From: an uncultured Candidatus Saccharibacteria bacterium
GTDB lineage: Bacteria; Patescibacteriota; Saccharimonadia; Saccharimonadales; JALRHH01
Reading direction: 5' to 3'
DNA length: 64,000 nucleotides
Assembly (NCBI GenBank): GCA_964559915.1
Contig: CAZLJP010000003.1
Location: 119,769 to 183,768, forward strand
In this document: piece by piece, positions 4,839 to 62,246 of the stretch
How positions within the stretch are numbered: the stretch's first letter is position 1
Layout of the letters: each line of letters begins with the position of its first letter
Translations under genes and position numbers: made by a program
The notes under the pieces: generated by a model
Told to the model about the DNA's origin: nothing
The model's input: only the letters and a program-made list of their open reading frames with translations
Databases searched by the model: none

Positions 4839-5288
4839 ATGACAAAAAATATTACAAAGATCACTAAGAAGCAACGCAAAGAGTTTACCAGGTTCGCCGA
4901 ATACATGGTTGGTGGTGGTGTCTGGTTCTGGAGCGGCTACGTTATTATTGTTGTTCTGGACAATCATATTGGATTGTTCTGGGCGAATGTTCTGGGTCAA
5001 ACCGTTGGCCTGACGCTCAATTTCATCATTGAACGTTATTGGGCGTTTAAGACCAAGAAACCCGCCAAACTTGGCGTGGCCACCAGACGATACATTGTGT
5101 ACACGGCGCTGAATGCGTTTGGGCTGAACTACCTCATTCTGCTGGGTCTCAAGAACGTAGGTATTGACCCGGCAATCGGCCAATTTATTGCCTCTGCCTT
5201 CTTTACTGCGTGGAATTACTACTGGTATAAAGTGTATGTATTTAAGGGCAACGAGAAGCCTAAACACGTAAAACACCACACGCCATGA
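4839..5288 (+). CDS. GtrA-family membrane protein
   Basis: 149 aa with four predicted TM helices and NFIIERYWAFK after TM2, as in GtrA-like proteins of glycan translocation. ATGA overlap with the next gene. Confidence 0.65.
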   Translation: MTKNITKITKKQRKEFTRFAEYMVGGGVWFWSGYVIIVVLDNHIGLFWANVLGQTVGLTLNFIIERYWAFKTKKPAKLGVATRRYIVYTALNAFGLNYLILLGLKNVGIDPAIGQFIASAFFTAWNYYWYKVYVFKGNEKPKHVKHHTP

Positions 5289-5731
5289 CAGAGACAACCG
5301 TACGACCAACCAAAAAACAGCGAGAATTACTGACGTATATAGAACAGTTCATTGGCGAGCACGGCTACAGCCCCAGCTACCGCGAAATCATGGCGGGTCT
5401 GCAATACAATTCCGTGGCAACCGTGGCGCTACACGTCAATAACCTCATAAAACGTGGCCATATTCGCAAACGCGACCACTCCGCTCGCTCCATAGAAGTA
5501 GTTGACTGGGTCGAAGAGCCAACACTCCGGACCAACGAGATAAAGCCTAGCGAGGAAAAATGGTTGGTAGAGAAGGTAGAGCACCTATTTGCCGAGGCAG
5601 AACAGGGTGCGTTGAGCCAGCAACAGCTTGATGAGTTGTACGTGCTGATTGGCGCGCTAAAAGTACTGGGCCTGGACGGCGCAGCCCAGTCATTTATTCC
5701 TCGGCTTAGCGGCTTAAAGGCGCATTCATGA
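5285..5731 (+). CDS. LexA N-terminal DNA-binding-domain protein lacking the S24 peptidase domain
   Basis: TKKQRELLTYIEQFIGEHGYSPSYREIMAGLQYNSVATVALHVNNLIKRGHIRK matches the LexA winged-helix domain. The C-terminal 70 aa have no Ser/Lys peptidase motifs. ATGA overlaps at both ends (5285-5288 and 5728-5731). Confidence 0.7.
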   Translation: MTETTVRPTKKQRELLTYIEQFIGEHGYSPSYREIMAGLQYNSVATVALHVNNLIKRGHIRKRDHSARSIEVVDWVEEPTLRTNEIKPSEEKWLVEKVEHLFAEAEQGALSQQQLDELYVLIGALKVLGLDGAAQSFIPRLSGLKAHS

Positions 5732-6623: not shown

Positions 6624-7268
6624 ATGGCAAAACGAAGGATTTTCAACCGTATATCAATAAAGAATGTACTGTATGTGCTAGTACTACTAGGCGCTATTGG
6701 CTTCGGTGCTTACAACTTTAAGCAAAACCAGGACCTACGTAATGCTTCACCAGAGAAGCTACAGCAGGCTCAGGCAGACGACACTATTACTGCCGTTGGC
6801 AAGCTGTACGACCTGCCCAAGAACGAAAAACCCGATGTCGCCACCGTTAAAGACAAAGAAGCGCTTAAGAAGCAGTACCCATTCTTTGACCAAGCAGAGA
6901 ACAATGACGTGGTGTTGATTTACAAAGACGCTAAGCTGGCTATCCTGTACCGTCCATCAACCAACCGTCTGGTTAAAGTCGGCCCAGTGAATATCGAATC
7001 TGGTCTTTCTATCAAAACCTTAGGCTCAGACACAGAACGCAAGGCAGTCGAGGCACTCCTAACTGCCAACAAGCTGACATTTAATTCTGGTGGCGTTAGC
7101 AAGACTGCAGTGAGCGGCGTAATAGTGGTTGATTTGACTGGCAAAAATGCCGAACAAGCTAAGAGATTAGCTGAAATCGTAAAGGGTACCGTAGGACAAC
7201 TGCCAGCTGGCGAAGATAAGCCAGCGGACGGTGACCTACTGGTCATCGCCGGCCCAGCCGCTCAGTAG
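6624..7268 (+). CDS. hypothetical membrane-anchored protein
   Basis: 214-aa ORF with a single N-terminal TM segment (VLYVLVLLGAIGFGAY). No recognisable motif. Confidence 0.6.
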   Translation: MAKRRIFNRISIKNVLYVLVLLGAIGFGAYNFKQNQDLRNASPEKLQQAQADDTITAVGKLYDLPKNEKPDVATVKDKEALKKQYPFFDQAENNDVVLIYKDAKLAILYRPSTNRLVKVGPVNIESGLSIKTLGSDTERKAVEALLTANKLTFNSGGVSKTAVSGVIVVDLTGKNAEQAKRLAEIVKGTVGQLPAGEDKPADGDLLVIAGPAAQ

Positions 7269-7271
7269 CCA

Positions 7272-7531
7272 ATAGCACGCACCATCCGGTCTGCTTTCTG
7301 GCGGAGCCAGAAACTCTACCGGATTCTTGGCCTCATATCCAATTTTCTCTTCCGATACTCCCTTCACCGTACTGTTTTGTACGGCTCGGTCCGTTTCTCA
7401 GAGAGAAATTGAACCTGAGTCTCAAGTGCGAACTACTGGATAGTAGGCACCACTGGTAGCGTACGCTAGGGCTAGCGTGGATTGTGTAGCATATACTACT
7501 ACAGCTAGTGTGATGAATGCGTGGTATGCTA
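7272..7531. repeat. structured repeat element, copy 2 (with ~85-nt internal expansion)
   Basis: Stem ATCCGG (7284-7289) / CCGGAT (7319-7324) around hairpin TTCTGG-CGGAG-CCAGAA. GATACTCCCTTC at 7354-7365. Hairpin CCGTAC-TGTTTT-GTACGG (7367-7384). Helix 7340-7350 / 7400-7411. Ends TAGCACGC ... GCGTGgtatGCTA. Extra hairpins at 7430-7515 are absent from copy 1. Confidence 0.65.
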
Positions 7532-7550
7532 ATAGCACTTAACAAAAACA

Positions 7551-7650
7551 AGCTGGAAGACGGGTGTAATACCCGAACTGTGCCGCAACGGTGAAAGTCC
7601 GATACAGCGTAAACCTCTCGAGCAAGAGTGAGCATACCTTTGTATAAAGG
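7551..7650 (+). promoter_or_regulatory. riboswitch-like structured 5' leader (class unassigned)
   Basis: Compact junction: P1 GCTG (7552-7555) / CAGC (7605-7608), hairpin CGGGT-GTAAT-ACCCG, hairpin CCG-CAA-CGG, and single-stranded GGTGAAAGTCCGATA. Followed directly by an intrinsic terminator and then the ATG of the 7688 gene. Confidence 0.4.
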
Positions 7651-7687
7651 CCCTCATTTTCGTTCCAGAGAATGAGGGTATTTTTTT
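7651..7687 (+). terminator. intrinsic terminator / attenuator immediately upstream of the 7688 start codon
   Basis: CCCTCATT (7651-7658) pairs with AATGAGGG (7671-7678), followed by TATTTTTTT, then ATG at 7688. Confidence 0.7.
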
Positions 7688-9142
7688 ATGGAACTGTTGG
7701 CCGAGCAAGCCGAGCTACAAACACAAGCAAACTATTGCTTCGTGGATGATATCCCGATGGTGGCCATTGCCCGTGGTCACGAACGTTTTGCTGCCCAAGA
7801 ACTACTTGAATCACGACGTCTTACCGGAGTGGTCGAGAGAGGTGGTCAGATACCCGTCGATGCGCTGTCTACAGCTCATAACGTGCTGAATACCAGAAGA
7901 GTATATGGCGAGGATAGCGATGAACACCAACAAAGCCTGAAGGGGCTTGTGCTGGACTGTCAGCGCTTGGTGGGTGAGTGGTATCGCAAGAAGAAGCCAG
8001 AATATTTCGCCCCCGTCCGGCACGTTTTTAACCAGGATACTGAGGAGTTCTTCTCGCATGGGCTGTCTATTCGGCAGATGACAGACAATGCACTGATACC
8101 TATTGATGACAATCGAGAAGACGAGGAGCGCCGCGTCAACGAACGAGTCGAGGAGGCAACCCCACAGCTGCTTCGAAAGCTTGGTTGTATCGCGATTGGG
8201 CAGGAGTCAATCCGTACCATTTCTGAATGTACGGACAAGGCAATCGAAGATTATGCCCACGACATGAAGCATGGTAATAAACACCGTGGATACAGTGGCT
8301 ACGTGCCAGAGATTCAAAAAGTCATGATTCGCGACATTCGTTTGGATGACAAGTCGAATGATAGGTTTGAGGAGCAGATTGGGCTGCCCGGTACGTATAT
8401 TACTCATGAAATTATTAAGATGGCACTAGAGGAACAAGGGCTGGATGCAGCCCGACTTGATAAGACGACCCTACACGGTTCGCAAATACTTGCCCGCGAC
8501 AGCCTGATGGATTTTGTGGAGCTGCTGGACAGCGTTGCGAGCCGAGAGTTCTGTACAGAAGTTTTTATGGGCGAAATGGTACCCGAGGGTGCCGATAAGA
8601 ATTACGGCACTTTCCGCGAAGAAGCCTTGCAGCGCCAAGAAGACCTCAAAGACATGGCCACAACGACTGCCAACTTTGTACTAGACCTGGCCAAGGCTAA
8701 TTTTAGCCGCGAAAAAGCGCCCGCGCATGTTGAGGAATTTGTAAAGAAACAGCTACTTAGTCTGGCAAAACATGATACATCTGTAGCCGAGCAGATGTTT
8801 GATAAACCAACAGCAGCAGGACTGCAGCAAGTGGCCATACTAGAGCAAGCCGGCCGGTTCCAAGAAGCCTTTGAGTTGATGCAGACAGTAGAGAAAGCGG
8901 CGCCGGGTGGTGGGTTTTGTGGTGCTGGCAGCTGTGGGCTAGAAAGTGTGAACATTAGTAGTGAAAGCGGCAAAGACCTTGTCAAAAAGCTGAACGCAGA
9001 TAGCAAAGATACTATCGTCAAAGACACTGAACGGGCCTGCCGCTGCGGCAAGAAATCCATTGTCTATGCGTATAATAAAAACAAGGTAAATAAGCTCTGT
9101 ACTAGTTGTGGCTCATTCGAATCAAAAGTAAGTAAAGTGTAG
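7688..9142 (+). CDS. hypothetical protein with C-terminal Cys-rich (zinc-ribbon-like) tail
   Basis: 484-aa ORF with no family recognised. C-terminus has CGAGSCG ... CRCG ... CTSCG cysteine pairs. Confidence 0.7.
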   Translation: MELLAEQAELQTQANYCFVDDIPMVAIARGHERFAAQELLESRRLTGVVERGGQIPVDALSTAHNVLNTRRVYGEDSDEHQQSLKGLVLDCQRLVGEWYRKKKPEYFAPVRHVFNQDTEEFFSHGLSIRQMTDNALIPIDDNREDEERRVNERVEEATPQLLRKLGCIAIGQESIRTISECTDKAIEDYAHDMKHGNKHRGYSGYVPEIQKVMIRDIRLDDKSNDRFEEQIGLPGTYITHEIIKMALEEQGLDAARLDKTTLHGSQILARDSLMDFVELLDSVASREFCTEVFMGEMVPEGADKNYGTFREEALQRQEDLKDMATTTANFVLDLAKANFSREKAPAHVEEFVKKQLLSLAKHDTSVAEQMFDKPTAAGLQQVAILEQAGRFQEAFELMQTVEKAAPGGGFCGAGSCGLESVNISSESGKDLVKKLNADSKDTIVKDTERACRCGKKSIVYAYNKNKVNKLCTSCGSFESKVSKV

Positions 9143-9145
9143 GAT

Positions 9146-9736
9146 ATGACAAAAATTGGCGTATATCCCGGAGCGTTTGACCCGGTGCATAAGGGGCATT
9201 TGGCGTTTGCACGGGCTGCTCAGGAGCAGTATGGGCTGGATAAGGTCTACTTTTTGCCCGAACCGAATCCCCGCCACAAACAAGGTGTCAAAGCTTTTGA
9301 GCATCGTATAAATATGGTGCAGCTGGCGACAGCCAACGAGCCGGACTTTGGTGTGATTGTGCTGGATCTTCAGGAGTTTGATGTGCCGCAGGTATGGTCA
9401 CGTATTACGGCCCGTTTTTTGGGTGCTGAGTTGTTCATGCTCGTAGGTAGCAACGCCATCAAGCGACTTGCCGCCTGGCCCCACACCATGCAAAAGGGCC
9501 AGCAAGTACCGACATTTGTCATTGCCAACCGCCACAAAGCAGTCGATATCAATGATTCAATAGCGACCTTACTCAAAACCAAGAAATTAAAACTGTCTTA
9601 TGAAGTCCTAGGGGCTCGTTACGCAATTTTTAAATCACCTGACATCAGGTTAAAGATTAAACGAGGAGAGCAGCCAGCCGGATTGCAGTACGAAATTTAC
9701 GAGTACATTAAGCGCAACAAACTGTACCACACCTAG
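9146..9736 (+). CDS. nadD: nicotinate-nucleotide adenylyltransferase-like cytidylyltransferase-fold protein
   Basis: N-terminal GVYPGAFDPVHKGHL (the (H/T)xGH nucleotidyltransferase motif) and FLPEPNPRHK as in NadD. 196 aa. Confidence 0.7.
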   Translation: MTKIGVYPGAFDPVHKGHLAFARAAQEQYGLDKVYFLPEPNPRHKQGVKAFEHRINMVQLATANEPDFGVIVLDLQEFDVPQVWSRITARFLGAELFMLVGSNAIKRLAAWPHTMQKGQQVPTFVIANRHKAVDINDSIATLLKTKKLKLSYEVLGARYAIFKSPDIRLKIKRGEQPAGLQYEIYEYIKRNKLYHT

Positions 9737-38657: not shown

Positions 38658-39398
38658 ATGGGCGATTCGATTCAGAACCCTCGCACTGTATTCCAGCAGC
38701 TTCAGGAGAGCATGTTGGCCGAACTTGAAATGACCAAGGCGACCGTGAATCACGCCCCCACCCAAGGCGCTGCGACTGAAGATAATTGGCTCAAACTGTT
38801 CCAGGACTATCTTCCTAGCCGGTACCGAGCCGAGAGAGGTCAGGTAATGGACTCTAGGGGTGGAATGAGTGACCAAATCGATGTGATTATATTCGATCGA
38901 CACTTCACTCCGTTCTTATTCAACTACAAAGGTGTATATTTTGTTCCAGCAGAGAGTGTCTACGCCGTAATTGAGGTAAAGCCCACGCTTAACAAGAGCT
39001 ACATACAATACGCTGGCGAGAAGGCGGCCTCAGTACGAAGGCTCCACAGGACCAGCGTGCCGATACCGCACGCTGGCGGAGTTTATCCACCAAAGGTACT
39101 ATTCCCGATATTGGGTGGTGTCGTCGCACGATCTGCCGAATGGACTACGGGTCTCGGTGGTGCTTTTAAAAAGGCCATCGTCACGAAAGACCCCAATATG
39201 ATGATTGATTTTGGCTGCGCTCTTAATGCTGGATCTTTCAAGGTTGATTACTCAGGTATCCAGCCAGCTATCACTATCAGTGACCAGAATGTACTGCTGG
39301 CCTTCATCATGGGCTTATTGGACAAGTTGCAATCCTTGGCTAGCGTGCCGGCGCTGGATTACAAGGCATACGGAGAACAGGGAGCTGCAAATGTCTGA
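38658..39398 (+). CDS. PD-(D/E)xK-like putative nuclease (DUF6602-like)
   Basis: GGMSDQIDVIIFD followed 23 aa later by SVYAVIEVKPTL gives a D...E-x-K arrangement typical of the restriction-endonuclease fold. The track ORF starts at GTG 38649, overlapping the upstream stop. ATG 38658 is the alternative. Confidence 0.55.
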   Translation: MGDSIQNPRTVFQQLQESMLAELEMTKATVNHAPTQGAATEDNWLKLFQDYLPSRYRAERGQVMDSRGGMSDQIDVIIFDRHFTPFLFNYKGVYFVPAESVYAVIEVKPTLNKSYIQYAGEKAASVRRLHRTSVPIPHAGGVYPPKVLFPILGGVVARSAEWTTGLGGAFKKAIVTKDPNMMIDFGCALNAGSFKVDYSGIQPAITISDQNVLLAFIMGLLDKLQSLASVPALDYKAYGEQGAANV

Positions 39399-40776
39399 AG
39401 TTAAAAGCTTATTCAAGGAATACCTGAGTGCCATTGAGCCAGACACAAAAGCAAAAAATATTGCTGCAAAGAGCCATGTTCAACCCAGAGAGTATCTTGA
39501 GAATGACGAGGTAATCGGTGACACAGTCGAGGATTCATTCTTGTACGGTTCTTACCGACGACACACCGCTATACACGATATTAAGGATGTTGATATCGTT
39601 ATGATCTCGAGTTTTGACCCAGATACAGATACTCCTAACACTGTGCTGAACAAATTGCATGCAGCTTTAAAGCGATGTTATGGAGACACCAACGTTCTTG
39701 AACTCAACCGCCGATCTGTTTGTGTCACGAACCCGCTGCCGGATGAAGAGACTGACCTAACGCTCGACATACTGCCTGCAGTTGAAGTTAACGATGGAAG
39801 TGGATATCTGCTAGTTCCAGACCGTGATCAAAAAGATTGGATACTCACTAACCCACGCGGTCACATAGAAGCGATTACAACGGCTAATAAGAAGCTGGAT
39901 AAAACGCTGGTACCGATGATAAAAATCATGAAGGCTTGGTGGCATCACCAGTCGTCACTTATTACCGGTGATTCAACTCAGAAGCTCCGGCCTAAAGGAT
40001 TCTGGATAGAAACACTAGTTCTTACTCATTTTGATTCATCTGCAGACAATTGGGCGCAGCGCTTTATAGAACTCCTCGAGAACATAACAACATCGTACCC
40101 TAAGGGTTCTGATGTACCTGAATTGCCAGATCCGGGTATGCCTGAGTCGATTCTTCAGACCAGTATGAGCAAGTCTGAGTTTGAAGTATTCATGAATACA
40201 GCTAGAAGCTCCTTGGGACTGGCGTACTCTGCATTTAACGAGACGGACCGACACGCCAGCTCTCAAACATGGTCACAGATTTTTGGCGATCACTTCCCAA
40301 TTGAAGAGGCAAAGGAGAAGCAAAAGTTTCTTACTGGGCAACAGTACGTACTGGGCAACATTAACCACGCGGTCGACTTGAGTTTCCCTTACTCCGTGAA
40401 TGGACAAGCAAGCCTCCGTGCAGAGCTCTATCGCCGCAATTACGATAATCGCAGGCTGAAGGTAAGATTTGGCACCCTGCAGCCACACGACTCAATAACC
40501 AGTGGTTTACACATCCGATTTAAGGCATGGACTGATGTCACGCTCCCTTATCGTGTGTACTGGCGTGTGGTGAATACTGGAGCACACGCAGCACAAGACA
40601 AGGGTTTGAGAGGCAAGCCCTTTCTAGATGACTCAGGCACTGAGCTCACTAGATGGGAGCCTACAGAATACACTGGTAAGCATTGGATGGAGTGCTTCAT
40701 TGTTAAGGGTGGTGAGGTAGTAGCTGCCAGTGAACGCTTCTACATCAACATCACTAACCCTAAGTGGGCTACGTAG
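39391..40776 (+). CDS. Pol-beta-fold nucleotidyltransferase, SMODS/CD-NTase-like, with uncharacterised C-terminal domain
   Basis: SFLYGSYRRHTAIHDIKDVDIVMI (G-S ... DxD) and TLDILPAVE (third acidic residue), then NPRGHIEA...LVPMIKIMKAWW as in SMODS-type cyclases. The ~180-aa C-terminal region is beta-rich. ATG 39391 overlaps the upstream stop (ATGTCTGA). The track ORF start at 39205 lies inside the preceding gene. Confidence 0.7.
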   Translation: MSEVKSLFKEYLSAIEPDTKAKNIAAKSHVQPREYLENDEVIGDTVEDSFLYGSYRRHTAIHDIKDVDIVMISSFDPDTDTPNTVLNKLHAALKRCYGDTNVLELNRRSVCVTNPLPDEETDLTLDILPAVEVNDGSGYLLVPDRDQKDWILTNPRGHIEAITTANKKLDKTLVPMIKIMKAWWHHQSSLITGDSTQKLRPKGFWIETLVLTHFDSSADNWAQRFIELLENITTSYPKGSDVPELPDPGMPESILQTSMSKSEFEVFMNTARSSLGLAYSAFNETDRHASSQTWSQIFGDHFPIEEAKEKQKFLTGQQYVLGNINHAVDLSFPYSVNGQASLRAELYRRNYDNRRLKVRFGTLQPHDSITSGLHIRFKAWTDVTLPYRVYWRVVNTGAHAAQDKGLRGKPFLDDSGTELTRWEPTEYTGKHWMECFIVKGGEVVAASERFYINITNPKWAT

Positions 40777-60818: not shown

Positions 60819-62246
60819 ATGACGAGGTTCCTCACGCCTTCAGAAATAGACAGCTATATCCAAACTGATAGTTCTTTTGATGATTTTACACTTTTTGAGG
60901 ACGATCCTAATATACGATTACTAGCGAAAGAAGCTTTTCTAACGGGTGCTGTTAATGCACCAAAGTATGATTATCCAAAGCTGGATATACTAGGAGATTC
61001 TGGTACGGCTGATGAAGATAAACAGCCAACGGACCTACGTGACAAAAAACATCAAACTTATGAAGCAATTCTTGAGCTAGAACAGAACAAGGATTCAGGC
61101 TATCTTACGCCAGAGATTTATGAATTATATGCTGGCTATCATGAAGCAAGCTTGCAAAAGATGATGTTAGTGCAGGCAGCGGAACACTTGCGCCACGCTG
61201 GTTCTTCGAGTGCAGAAGAAACGGCTCGTACAGAGTTTATGCAGCTCAATAAAGAGCTGTATGGTGAGATGGACTCGCATGCGTTTAACGCAATAATGAC
61301 ATCTGAGCAAAATCGAGTCACTAGATTTAAGCCTACAACTGAGCTTGCGTGGGACATTCAATCTAGCCTGGAAGATTATTTCAATCGTCATGAATTTAAT
61401 GTTCATGAAGAGCCACTACTAGACACAGAGACAATTGAGCAACTGAACGAAATTATTTTAGAACGCTACGCACATATTCTTAATGTAGTGCCTGGCACAG
61501 AAGATATCGTATATGATGCTGTTGAATGTCGTGACATTATGAATGAGGCTTTGGAGCGAGGTGGTCTATCTGCTGATGGTTGGACGGTTGAAGTCAGTAC
61601 AACTAAGGCTAATCCCACTACTAATGATAATTTGAAAAAGATTTTCCTACCTGTTACCACCAGGCGTACAGCCCCAGAGTTAAGGCGCGTGATAGTACAC
61701 GAGCAAGAAGTCCACGCTCGCAGAGCAAAAAATGGCGCAGATCTTGGCGTAAAAGCTTTGGAGTCTGGTACCGCAAACTATGCCGATGTTGAAGAAGGAC
61801 TAGGAGTATTGCTGGAGTGTGTACTGAGCAAAAATCTTAATAATCCATCATTCAACCGTGCGCGAGACAGATATATTACAGCCGGCCTAGCATTAGGCAC
61901 TGACGGTACTCCTAAGGACTCATTAGCAACTTTTAATATTCTTTGGAAACTACTTGCGATTCGCAGTGCAACAGACGGTTCAATCAGTGAAGGCAATGTA
62001 CTCGCGGCAAAGAAACAAGCCTTCGTTCATATTGAGAACGCTTTTCGTGGTACCAATTTTGCTAAACCAGGGGTTATTTATAGCAAGCTTAAGGTATATT
62101 ACGAGGGTTTATCAAAAAATGCTCAGTTCTTTATGGACCAAAAGGGTGATCTGAGCGGTGCTCTTGACCGTGCCATGCGAGGTAAACATGACCATACTGA
62201 CCCTGAGGAGGCTGCACTTGTGCAGCGTATCGCCAAGGGTGCATAG
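60819..62246 (+). CDS. DUF1704-like putative metallocarboxypeptidase (MATCAP/QEGLA-motif family)
   Basis: 475 aa. VIVHEQEVHARR (H-E...H) followed by ADVEEGLGVLLE resembles the HExxxH + (Q/E)EGLA pattern of DUF1704 (recalled from memory). Confidence 0.45.
   Translation: MTRFLTPSEIDSYIQTDSSFDDFTLFEDDPNIRLLAKEAFLTGAVNAPKYDYPKLDILGDSGTADEDKQPTDLRDKKHQTYEAILELEQNKDSGYLTPEIYELYAGYHEASLQKMMLVQAAEHLRHAGSSSAEETARTEFMQLNKELYGEMDSHAFNAIMTSEQNRVTRFKPTTELAWDIQSSLEDYFNRHEFNVHEEPLLDTETIEQLNEIILERYAHILNVVPGTEDIVYDAVECRDIMNEALERGGLSADGWTVEVSTTKANPTTNDNLKKIFLPVTTRRTAPELRRVIVHEQEVHARRAKNGADLGVKALESGTANYADVEEGLGVLLECVLSKNLNNPSFNRARDRYITAGLALGTDGTPKDSLATFNILWKLLAIRSATDGSISEGNVLAAKKQAFVHIENAFRGTNFAKPGVIYSKLKVYYEGLSKNAQFFMDQKGDLSGALDRAMRGKHDHTDPEEAALVQRIAKGA

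Follow-up and report, generated by a model that had tools for sequence, protein, structure and literature searches.

The window, as we call the whole 64-kb stretch of DNA that was analyzed, raises the question of what kind of structured leader lies directly in front of the gene at 7688–9142, which ligand it answers to, and what it can tell us about a gene that carries no annotation. An earlier sequence-only reading had described a compact three-way junction followed by a strong terminator, and had likened its conserved strings to those of cobalamin and FMN aptamers. It had also proposed an Rfam search, a search for the same leader upstream of orthologs, and a covariation test.

Analysis of the 64-kb window with Rfam at curated thresholds returned three tRNAs and one riboswitch. 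The sole riboswitch match is RF01689 (AdoCbl-II) at 7538–7614 on the + strand, with 37.9 bits against a gathering cut-off of 36.5 (E 2.1e-5; whole-window scan), which is a margin of only 1.4 bits. The match spans positions 1–81 of the 81-position model, which belongs to clan CL00101 (cobalamin riboswitches), while a match to RF00174 in the window scored below RF01689 and was dropped as the lower-scoring clan overlap. A permissive Rfam rescan of 7250–7750 added only noise beyond RF01689, and the FMN riboswitch (RF00050) gave no match in this region even at E ≤ 10 with permissive filters. The resemblance to cobalamin aptamers was therefore correct, as RF01689 lies above its gathering score, and the resemblance to FMN aptamers was not. 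An independent covariance model (R1), derived from 31 leaders found in other genomes and not from the window itself, gave a single match in the 64-kb window, at 7532–7631 with 91.8 bits (E 2e-20).

The structured leader is thus a class-II cobalamin riboswitch, an element of a known kind. The junction string quoted in the sequence-only reading is present at 7552–7608 and forms the core of the element, which really begins further 5′, at about 7538, and also includes a hairpin, P13 (7615–7628), that had been missed. No B12 box could be placed at the time because this subfamily has a 4-bp P3 (CAGC) and a 3-nt J6/3 (AUA) instead of the ...GCCACUG ending. The features are as follows.

7497–7510, + strand: upstream motif TACTAYANNTAGYG (here TACTACAGCTAGTG), about 12 nt upstream of the −10; conserved
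7522–7530, + strand: putative extended −10 TGGTATGCT (TGnTAnnnT), at a conserved position in the leaders
7538–7551, + strand: 5′ leader CUUAAC (nominal P1 5′ strand) and single-stranded J1/3 AAAAACAA (7544–7551), aligned by Rfam as P1 and J1/3; TTAACAA conserved
7552–7608, + strand: cobalamin aptamer core, a four-way junction (RF01689, 37.9 bits; R1, 91.8 bits; covariation)
7552–7555/7605–7608, + strand: P3, GCUG/CAGC; compensatory changes
7556–7560, + strand: J3/4
7561–7575, + strand: P4 (7561–7564/7572–7575) and L4; compensatory changes
7579–7580/7586–7587, + strand: P5, with L5 UGCCG at 7581–7585; compensatory changes
7589–7591/7599–7601, + strand: P6, with the 7-nt L6 UGAAAGU at 7592–7598; compensatory changes
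7602–7604, + strand: J6/3, AUA
7615–7628, + strand: P13 hairpin CUCU-CGAGCA-AGAG, stem 7615–7618/7625–7628; 4/4 pairs covary
7620–7665, + strand: antiterminator, 7620–7623 and 7625–7632 with 7653–7660 and 7662–7665, enclosing the hairpin 7637–7641/7646–7650
7650–7687, + strand: intrinsic terminator hairpin (7650–7661/7668–7679) and U7 run (7681–7687), from a terminator scan
7688–9142, + strand: regulated gene for a 484-aa protein restricted to Saccharimonadales (alignment A1; 256 homologs)

Orthologous leaders were collected by scanning GTDB species genomes with the 27-member protein alignment, which gave 16 loci, all in Saccharibacteria MAGs (loci are referred to by L numbers). DNA upstream of the gene is available for 15 of them, and every one of these carries the same aptamer core there, so the leader is conserved in front of the orthologs. 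Its parts come in a fixed order: TTAACAA, GCUGGAA, a covarying hairpin, ACUGUGCCGCAACGGU, an optional insertion, AAGUCCGAUACAGC, a hairpin YCYC-CGAGCA-GRGR, and finally, immediately in front of the start codon, a GC-rich hairpin with a U run. The Rfam thresholds are passed by just three of the 15 leaders, two with RF01689 and one with RF00174 (L006); the others apparently escape detection owing to the variable insertions they carry in P6 or L4. The P6 insertions range from 0 to ≈100 nt across the orthologous leaders. They measure ≈85–105 nt in L001, L002, and L014 and are absent from the window (7592–7598), and L4 insertions are seen in L004 and L007. The peripheral elements of the aptamer are unusually fluid within one orthologous lineage, and selectivity for a corrinoid form can therefore not be inferred from them, in line with the view that cobalamin-form selectivity is not reliably readable from peripheral elements (discussion of PMC7367189).

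The fold was assessed in an alignment of 32 Saccharibacteria-type leaders, that of the window plus 13 from genomes and 18 from metagenomes. Before alignment, insertions in P6 had been cut down to three nucleotides, and the metagenome loci had been chosen by an RNA pattern in which GGAA, GT and the P5/L5 string are set, with P3, P4, P6, and P13 left unconstrained. Standard pairs occupy 97.2% of the cells in this alignment, compared to 25–48% when the partners are slid by 1–3 columns, and 13 of the 22 pairs have changed on both sides. The covariation score was 0.407 against 0.125 for shuffled alignments, a value reached by none of 500 shuffles, and compensatory changes are present in each of P3, P4, P5, P6, and P13. 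The covariation test thus came out in favor of a conserved structure, but of a somewhat different one than first drawn. The closing helix GCUG/CAGC (7552–7555/7605–7608) and the hairpin CGGG(U)...(A)CCCG (7561–7575) had been recognized from the window alone, and both show compensatory changes in homologs. The proposed third helix, CCG CAA CGG, shows no covariation and is broken in 7 of the 32 homologs, and its only variable column instead covaries from G-C to U-A with position 7600 in P6. The junction is therefore four-way (P3, P4, P5, and P6) and not three-way.

A P1 helix closing the aptamer was considered and set aside as weak. In the window UUAAC can pair with GUAAA (7609–7613) in four of five positions with an A·A mismatch, but the pairing is unsupported across homologs, as comparable pairing beats 90% of shuffles in only 4 of 35 leaders.

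Downstream of the core, the loop of P13 (L13, 7619–7624) is complementary to L5 through the pairs G7585–C7619, C7584–G7620, C7583–G7622, G7582–C7623, and U7581–A7624. L5 UGCCG and L13 CG-A-GCA can in this way form five pairs if A7621 is bulged. Among the matches listed, a hairpin with a CGNGC loop was found downstream in 113 of the 127 loci that carry the window-type L5 and enough downstream DNA, where 22 would be expected. The middle base of this loop varies (A in 99, C in 7, U in 5, and G in 2 of these 113 listed hairpins), as expected for the bulged nucleotide typical of cobalamin kissing loops. Such kissing-loop architectures have been described (PMC5028336; PMC7367189), and bulged nucleotides in them are conserved and functionally required (PMC5028336). 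The L5–L13 kissing loop is predicted from this complementarity, with L5 invariant in the genome set and fixed by the pattern in the metagenome set.

The segment from P13 to the start codon can adopt two folds. When the nascent RNA 7609–7667, without the 3′ arm of the terminator, is folded, the antiterminator is the minimum free energy (MFE) structure with −14.6 kcal/mol and 65% of the ensemble (z −3.26; none of 200 shuffles as stable). This structure uses up L13 and the 3′ arm of P13. A test of the antiterminator as a duplex only was weak in the window (z −0.7) and was replaced by this folding of the whole nascent segment. With the 3′ arm included (7615–7687), the MFE structure consists of P13, a small hairpin and the terminator, at −23.1 kcal/mol. 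The antiterminator topology is the MFE structure in 28 of 30 homologous leaders, the window included, despite differing sequences of the terminator arms, and L068, whose L13 reads CGUGCA, has a matching A in the strand with which it pairs. Both alternative folds exist and are conserved, as shown computationally.

The terminator itself has a 12-bp stem (−18.4 kcal/mol) followed by ATTTTTTT, after which the ATG comes at 7688. The strong terminator at 7650–7679 with a T-run (7681–7687) abutting the ATG had been correctly described from the sequence, as had the overall layout of an aptamer with an expression platform. Its 3′ arm also contains the Shine-Dalgarno sequence GAGGG (7674–7678).

The conserved region extends upstream of the aptamer. 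In most of 37 leaders TGnTAnnnT or plain TAnnnT is found 22–30 nt upstream of the GGAA in J3/4, and the extended −10 of the window predicts a transcription start near 7537. A single copy of the pattern TACTAYANNTAGYG is found in the 64-kb window, where 0 are expected. The motif is present upstream of most orthologous leaders and was noted at the equivalent position in L001–L016, L052, L121 and others. By eye, its TAGYG can pair with a UGCUA that overlaps the −10. The motif may be a promoter element peculiar to these leaders or an inverted repeat of the operator kind. A small protein with a LexA DNA-binding domain is encoded at 5285–5731 (+), and such a gene recurs in nearly all Saccharibacteria loci, two or three genes before the riboswitch.

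With these data a skeptical explanation can be weighed, namely that the terminator ends the transcript of the upstream gene (6624–7268) and that the likeness to an aptamer is due to chance and has no regulatory role. The marginal Rfam score would fit this, as would the failure of RNAfold to recover the native fold from the whole leader or from the aptamer alone (z −0.76 to −1.8). However, the hairpin lies ≈380 nt past the upstream stop codon at 7268, and a conserved extended −10 is found between the two genes, which answers the objection raised in the sequence-only reading that a separate promoter might be missing. The R1 match (E 2e-20) and the strong covariation are also hard to reconcile with chance, 28 of 30 leaders have a terminator whose 5′ arm complements L13/P13, and the leader stays with the downstream gene even where the upstream neighbor differs. 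We regard this explanation as effectively refuted. The riboswitch is genuine and well conserved, and it belongs to a known class with a known mechanism in a little-studied phylum. A literature search for cobalamin riboswitches in Saccharibacteria or Patescibacteria found none described.

Whether control would be exerted on transcription or on translation can be judged from the terminators of the homologous leaders. Of 35 leaders, 31 have a GC-rich stem followed by at least 5 U. In 29 of these 31 terminators the 3′ arm contains a purine run resembling an SD, most often GAGGG, and in 27 the start codon is no more than 16 nt away. The last two counts could also be explained by purely translational control, in which the 7650–7679 hairpin hides the SD, the U run is an A/U-rich spacer, and no termination is regulated; L001, which has an SD hairpin without a clear U run, would agree with this. 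We consider it improbable in view of how common the stem and U run are in the leaders, and since the 12-bp stem and U7 of the window make up a textbook intrinsic terminator. The two modes are moreover not exclusive. As the 3′ arm of the terminator holds the SD, repression is probably both transcriptional and translational.

The element is very probably a class-II (Cbl-IIa-like) cobalamin riboswitch that acts as an OFF switch on 7688–9142. Transcription would start near 7537 from the extended −10 promoter of the leader itself, and 7552–7608 fold into the P3–P6 four-way junction, as the covariation shows, which would bind a corrinoid. With ligand, L5 UGCCG and L13 CG-A-GCA would pair and stabilize the weak 4-bp P13. 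This would free the 5′ arm of the terminator, allow the 12-bp terminator to form and stop transcription in U7 just before the ATG, and any read-through RNA would keep the SD GAGGG buried in the terminator hairpin. Without ligand, P13 would melt and 7620–7632 would pair with the 5′ arm and loop of the terminator (7653–7665), and this antiterminator would give read-through with the SD free. For the direction of the switch we rely on analogy with the experimentally dissected metE riboswitch of Priestia megaterium. [quoted passage not shown]

That the ligand could not be guessed from gene context, as concluded from the window alone, no longer holds when homologous aptamers are included. An exact-pattern scan of metagenome contigs for the core GGAA-N-GT-N-CWGTGCCGCWACNGT gave at least 120 loci. 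Among the matches listed, the two W positions of the pattern occur only in complementary combinations in 119 loci, and the sole exception (L093) lies in GC-rich, probably coding, sequence. The first downstream ORFs of the matches listed include a 24-member cluster, of which the scanned representative matches Pfam DUF4430, and others that by sequence inspection are TonB-receptor/BtuB-like, periplasmic BtuF-like, CobG-like and CbiX. DUF4430 is the C-terminal domain of transcobalamin-type B12 binders (PMC4350170). The Saccharibacteria-type leaders of L047 and L087 likewise precede DUF4430-like proteins, here with an N-terminal hydrophobic segment resembling a membrane anchor. Family membership and the genes beside homologous aptamers thus suggest that the aptamer binds a corrinoid.

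A cobalamin-fold aptamer that has changed to a non-corrinoid ligand would explain both the borderline Rfam score (37.9 against a gathering score of 36.5) and a gene that cannot be recognized, since the regulated family has no known function. J6/3 and P3 read AUA-CAGC where the model consensus is AGcGCCaCc, and L5 is UGCCG and not the UCCCG consensus cited in PMC10327014. Yet the identical J3/4-P4-P5-L5-P6 core string precedes classic B12 genes, namely the BtuB-like, BtuF-like, CobG-like, CbiX and DUF4430 ones, and the same style of P3 and J6/3 precedes DUF4430 both in L047, in the same genomic slot as the window gene, and in L087. L13 CG-A-GCA complements the altered L5, which would keep the geometry of the kissing loop intact. 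A changed ligand therefore appears very unlikely to us, and a corrinoid remains the preferred ligand.

The gene under this predicted control was found to be without recognizable function, as previously noted. Its 484-aa protein has no match in Pfam or NCBIfam, no PDB match by sequence profile except for designed helical repeats (E 0.14), and no Foldseek match of its model to the PDB at E < 0.1 (best E 0.15). In a collection of 5.8 billion proteins we found 256 homologs, all unnamed or "hypothetical," and those with a named source belong to Candidatus Saccharimonadales or Saccharibacteria. Only 181 relatives, all of the same family, turned up when 1.84 billion representatives were searched with a profile. 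The 27 members of alignment A1 share more than 100 invariant positions, among them eight cysteines. An invariant Cys pair near the C-terminus (GGGxCGxGSCGLE) is followed by a CxC...CxxC zinc-ribbon-like motif. The AlphaFold2 model (pLDDT 85.4, pTM 0.84) is confident and combines helical with alpha/beta parts; its GGGFCGAG loop is disordered, and at the C-terminus four strands form a unit resembling a zinc ribbon.

The riboswitch–gene pair is always located between GtrA-LexA-(BacA) and NadD-Na/H antiporter genes. In other Saccharibacteria this slot holds genes from clusters that show no BLAST link to the protein of the window. By hhalign, A1 is linked to the L097 cluster with 96% probability, the L052 cluster to L136 with 95%, and the L098 cluster to L025 with 94.5%, and the remaining pairs of clusters are linked weakly. 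All slot clusters share a conserved Cys motif and then a C-terminal CxxC...CxxC ribbon, and they matched no Pfam family. Many otherwise unrelated proteins of 270–560 aa follow the aptamer in L025, L026, L027, L039, L059, L052, L070, L084, L097, L098, L130, and L136; they have a C-terminal Cys motif (e.g., GSCGG or ACP) with a CxxC...CxxC ribbon ≈30–45 residues on. A Pfam scan of nine of them found no family in any, and L059 gave only a sub-threshold match to TackOD1 (16.3 bits vs. a cut-off of 32). The 270–560 aa proteins may form one cobalamin-regulated superfamily. In L047 (582–2358, oriented), the same slot just upstream of the NadD-like and Na/H antiporter genes (7538–9736 in the window) holds a riboswitch and a 160-aa DUF4430 protein resembling B12 binders in place of the ≈485-aa protein.

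The slot context points to a possible function of the 484-aa protein in B12 starvation. More tentatively, and at somewhat below an even chance, the riboswitch may mark an undescribed, fast-evolving superfamily related to corrinoids in Saccharibacteria and other CPR-like bacteria, which could act as a scavenging or handling factor for corrinoids or as a B12-independent substitute enzyme and would have a fold unmatched by any solved structure. This superfamily would take in the A1 family and the L052-, L097-, L098-, and L136-like families in the one slot.

A NadD-like nucleotidyltransferase is encoded at 9146–9736 (+), 3 nt after the regulated gene. Its best score of 91.6 bits (vs. 150) is below every NCBIfam NadD equivalog cut-off, and since it is well below, the protein is a divergent member. 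The gene was rejected as a functional partner, as other genes intervene in L003 and L004, and its adjacency thus reflects general synteny and not an obligate operon. At other loci, genes resembling that of the window protein have no B12-related operon partner and look monocistronic, and no B12-related family was found in the ten largest other ORFs of the window. Two of the proteins encoded elsewhere in the window are a 523-aa protein (39205–40776, +) with SMODS nucleotidyltransferase and AGS-C sensor domains, as in CBASS-like anti-phage signaling, and a 475-aa protein (60819–62246, +) matching Pfam MATCAP (microtubule-associated tyrosine carboxypeptidase) with 36.9 bits, which is unexpected in a Saccharibacterium.

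Alone, the riboswitch adds little, since it is within reach of Rfam and its predicted mechanism has been published for another riboswitch. It is of value as a functional label, which would link B12 status to an otherwise unannotated family of Saccharibacteria proteins, and this rapidly diverging family under riboswitch control is the more interesting lead. Saccharibacteria are ultrasmall epibionts that must get their cofactors from their hosts, and the locus offers a testable handle on how they cope with B12 scarcity. It also represents a natural and compact (≈150 nt) terminator/SD switch for Patescibacteria with predicted ligand control; a recent perspective called for riboswitch-type tools for inducible expression in this group (PMC11665869).

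Among known systems, Cbl-I riboswitches (RF00174; E. coli btuB, T. tengcongensis 4GMA) share with the window the core strings GGAA...GUG...CNGUGCCGCAACGGU...AGUCCG and the kissing-loop principle, whereas the window has neither the P2 loop-stem-loop nor the P7–P11 extension. The closest likeness in architecture is to Cbl-IIa (RF01689, AdoCbl-variant; env8HyCbl, PDB 4FRN). Two features that mark this type by the definitions in PMC7367189 are present in the window. J1/3 is single-stranded in place of a P2 loop-stem-loop, as the only 8 nt (AAAAACAA, 7544–7551) between the nominal P1 strand and P3 leave no room for a P2 hairpin, and P6 is closed by a 7-nt loop without a P7–P11 extension. By these definitions the predicted fold of the window element is of Cbl-IIa architecture. 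[quoted passage not shown] Unlike Cbl-IIa, the window has a P3 of only 4 bp, AUA as J6/3 and a weak or absent P1. Its predicted L5–L13 interaction (UGCCG/CG-A-GCA) has one bulged base, while that of env8 has a mismatch and two bulged purines. L13 contains no RBS, and a separate antiterminator/terminator platform takes the place of direct RBS occlusion. The orthologous leaders carry P6 extensions of 0 to ≈100 nt, many of them with a hairpin or longer insertion that looks like Cbl-IIb or larger, and the host is a Saccharibacterium and not a marine bacterium.

The expression platform is most similar to that of the transcriptional corrinoid riboswitch of P. megaterium metE (PMC10327014), in which a kissing loop stabilizes P13, as it would in the window, and a structured spacer likewise separates P13 from the terminator. 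[quoted passage not shown] The aptamer of metE is of the Cbl-I type, with a P2 arm and a greatly extended P6, and its 5-bp kissing loop (UCCCG) is contiguous, whereas the aptamer of the window is minimal. In contrast to metE, the predicted antiterminator of the window also takes up the loop bases of L13, and the terminator would double as the sequestor of the SD.
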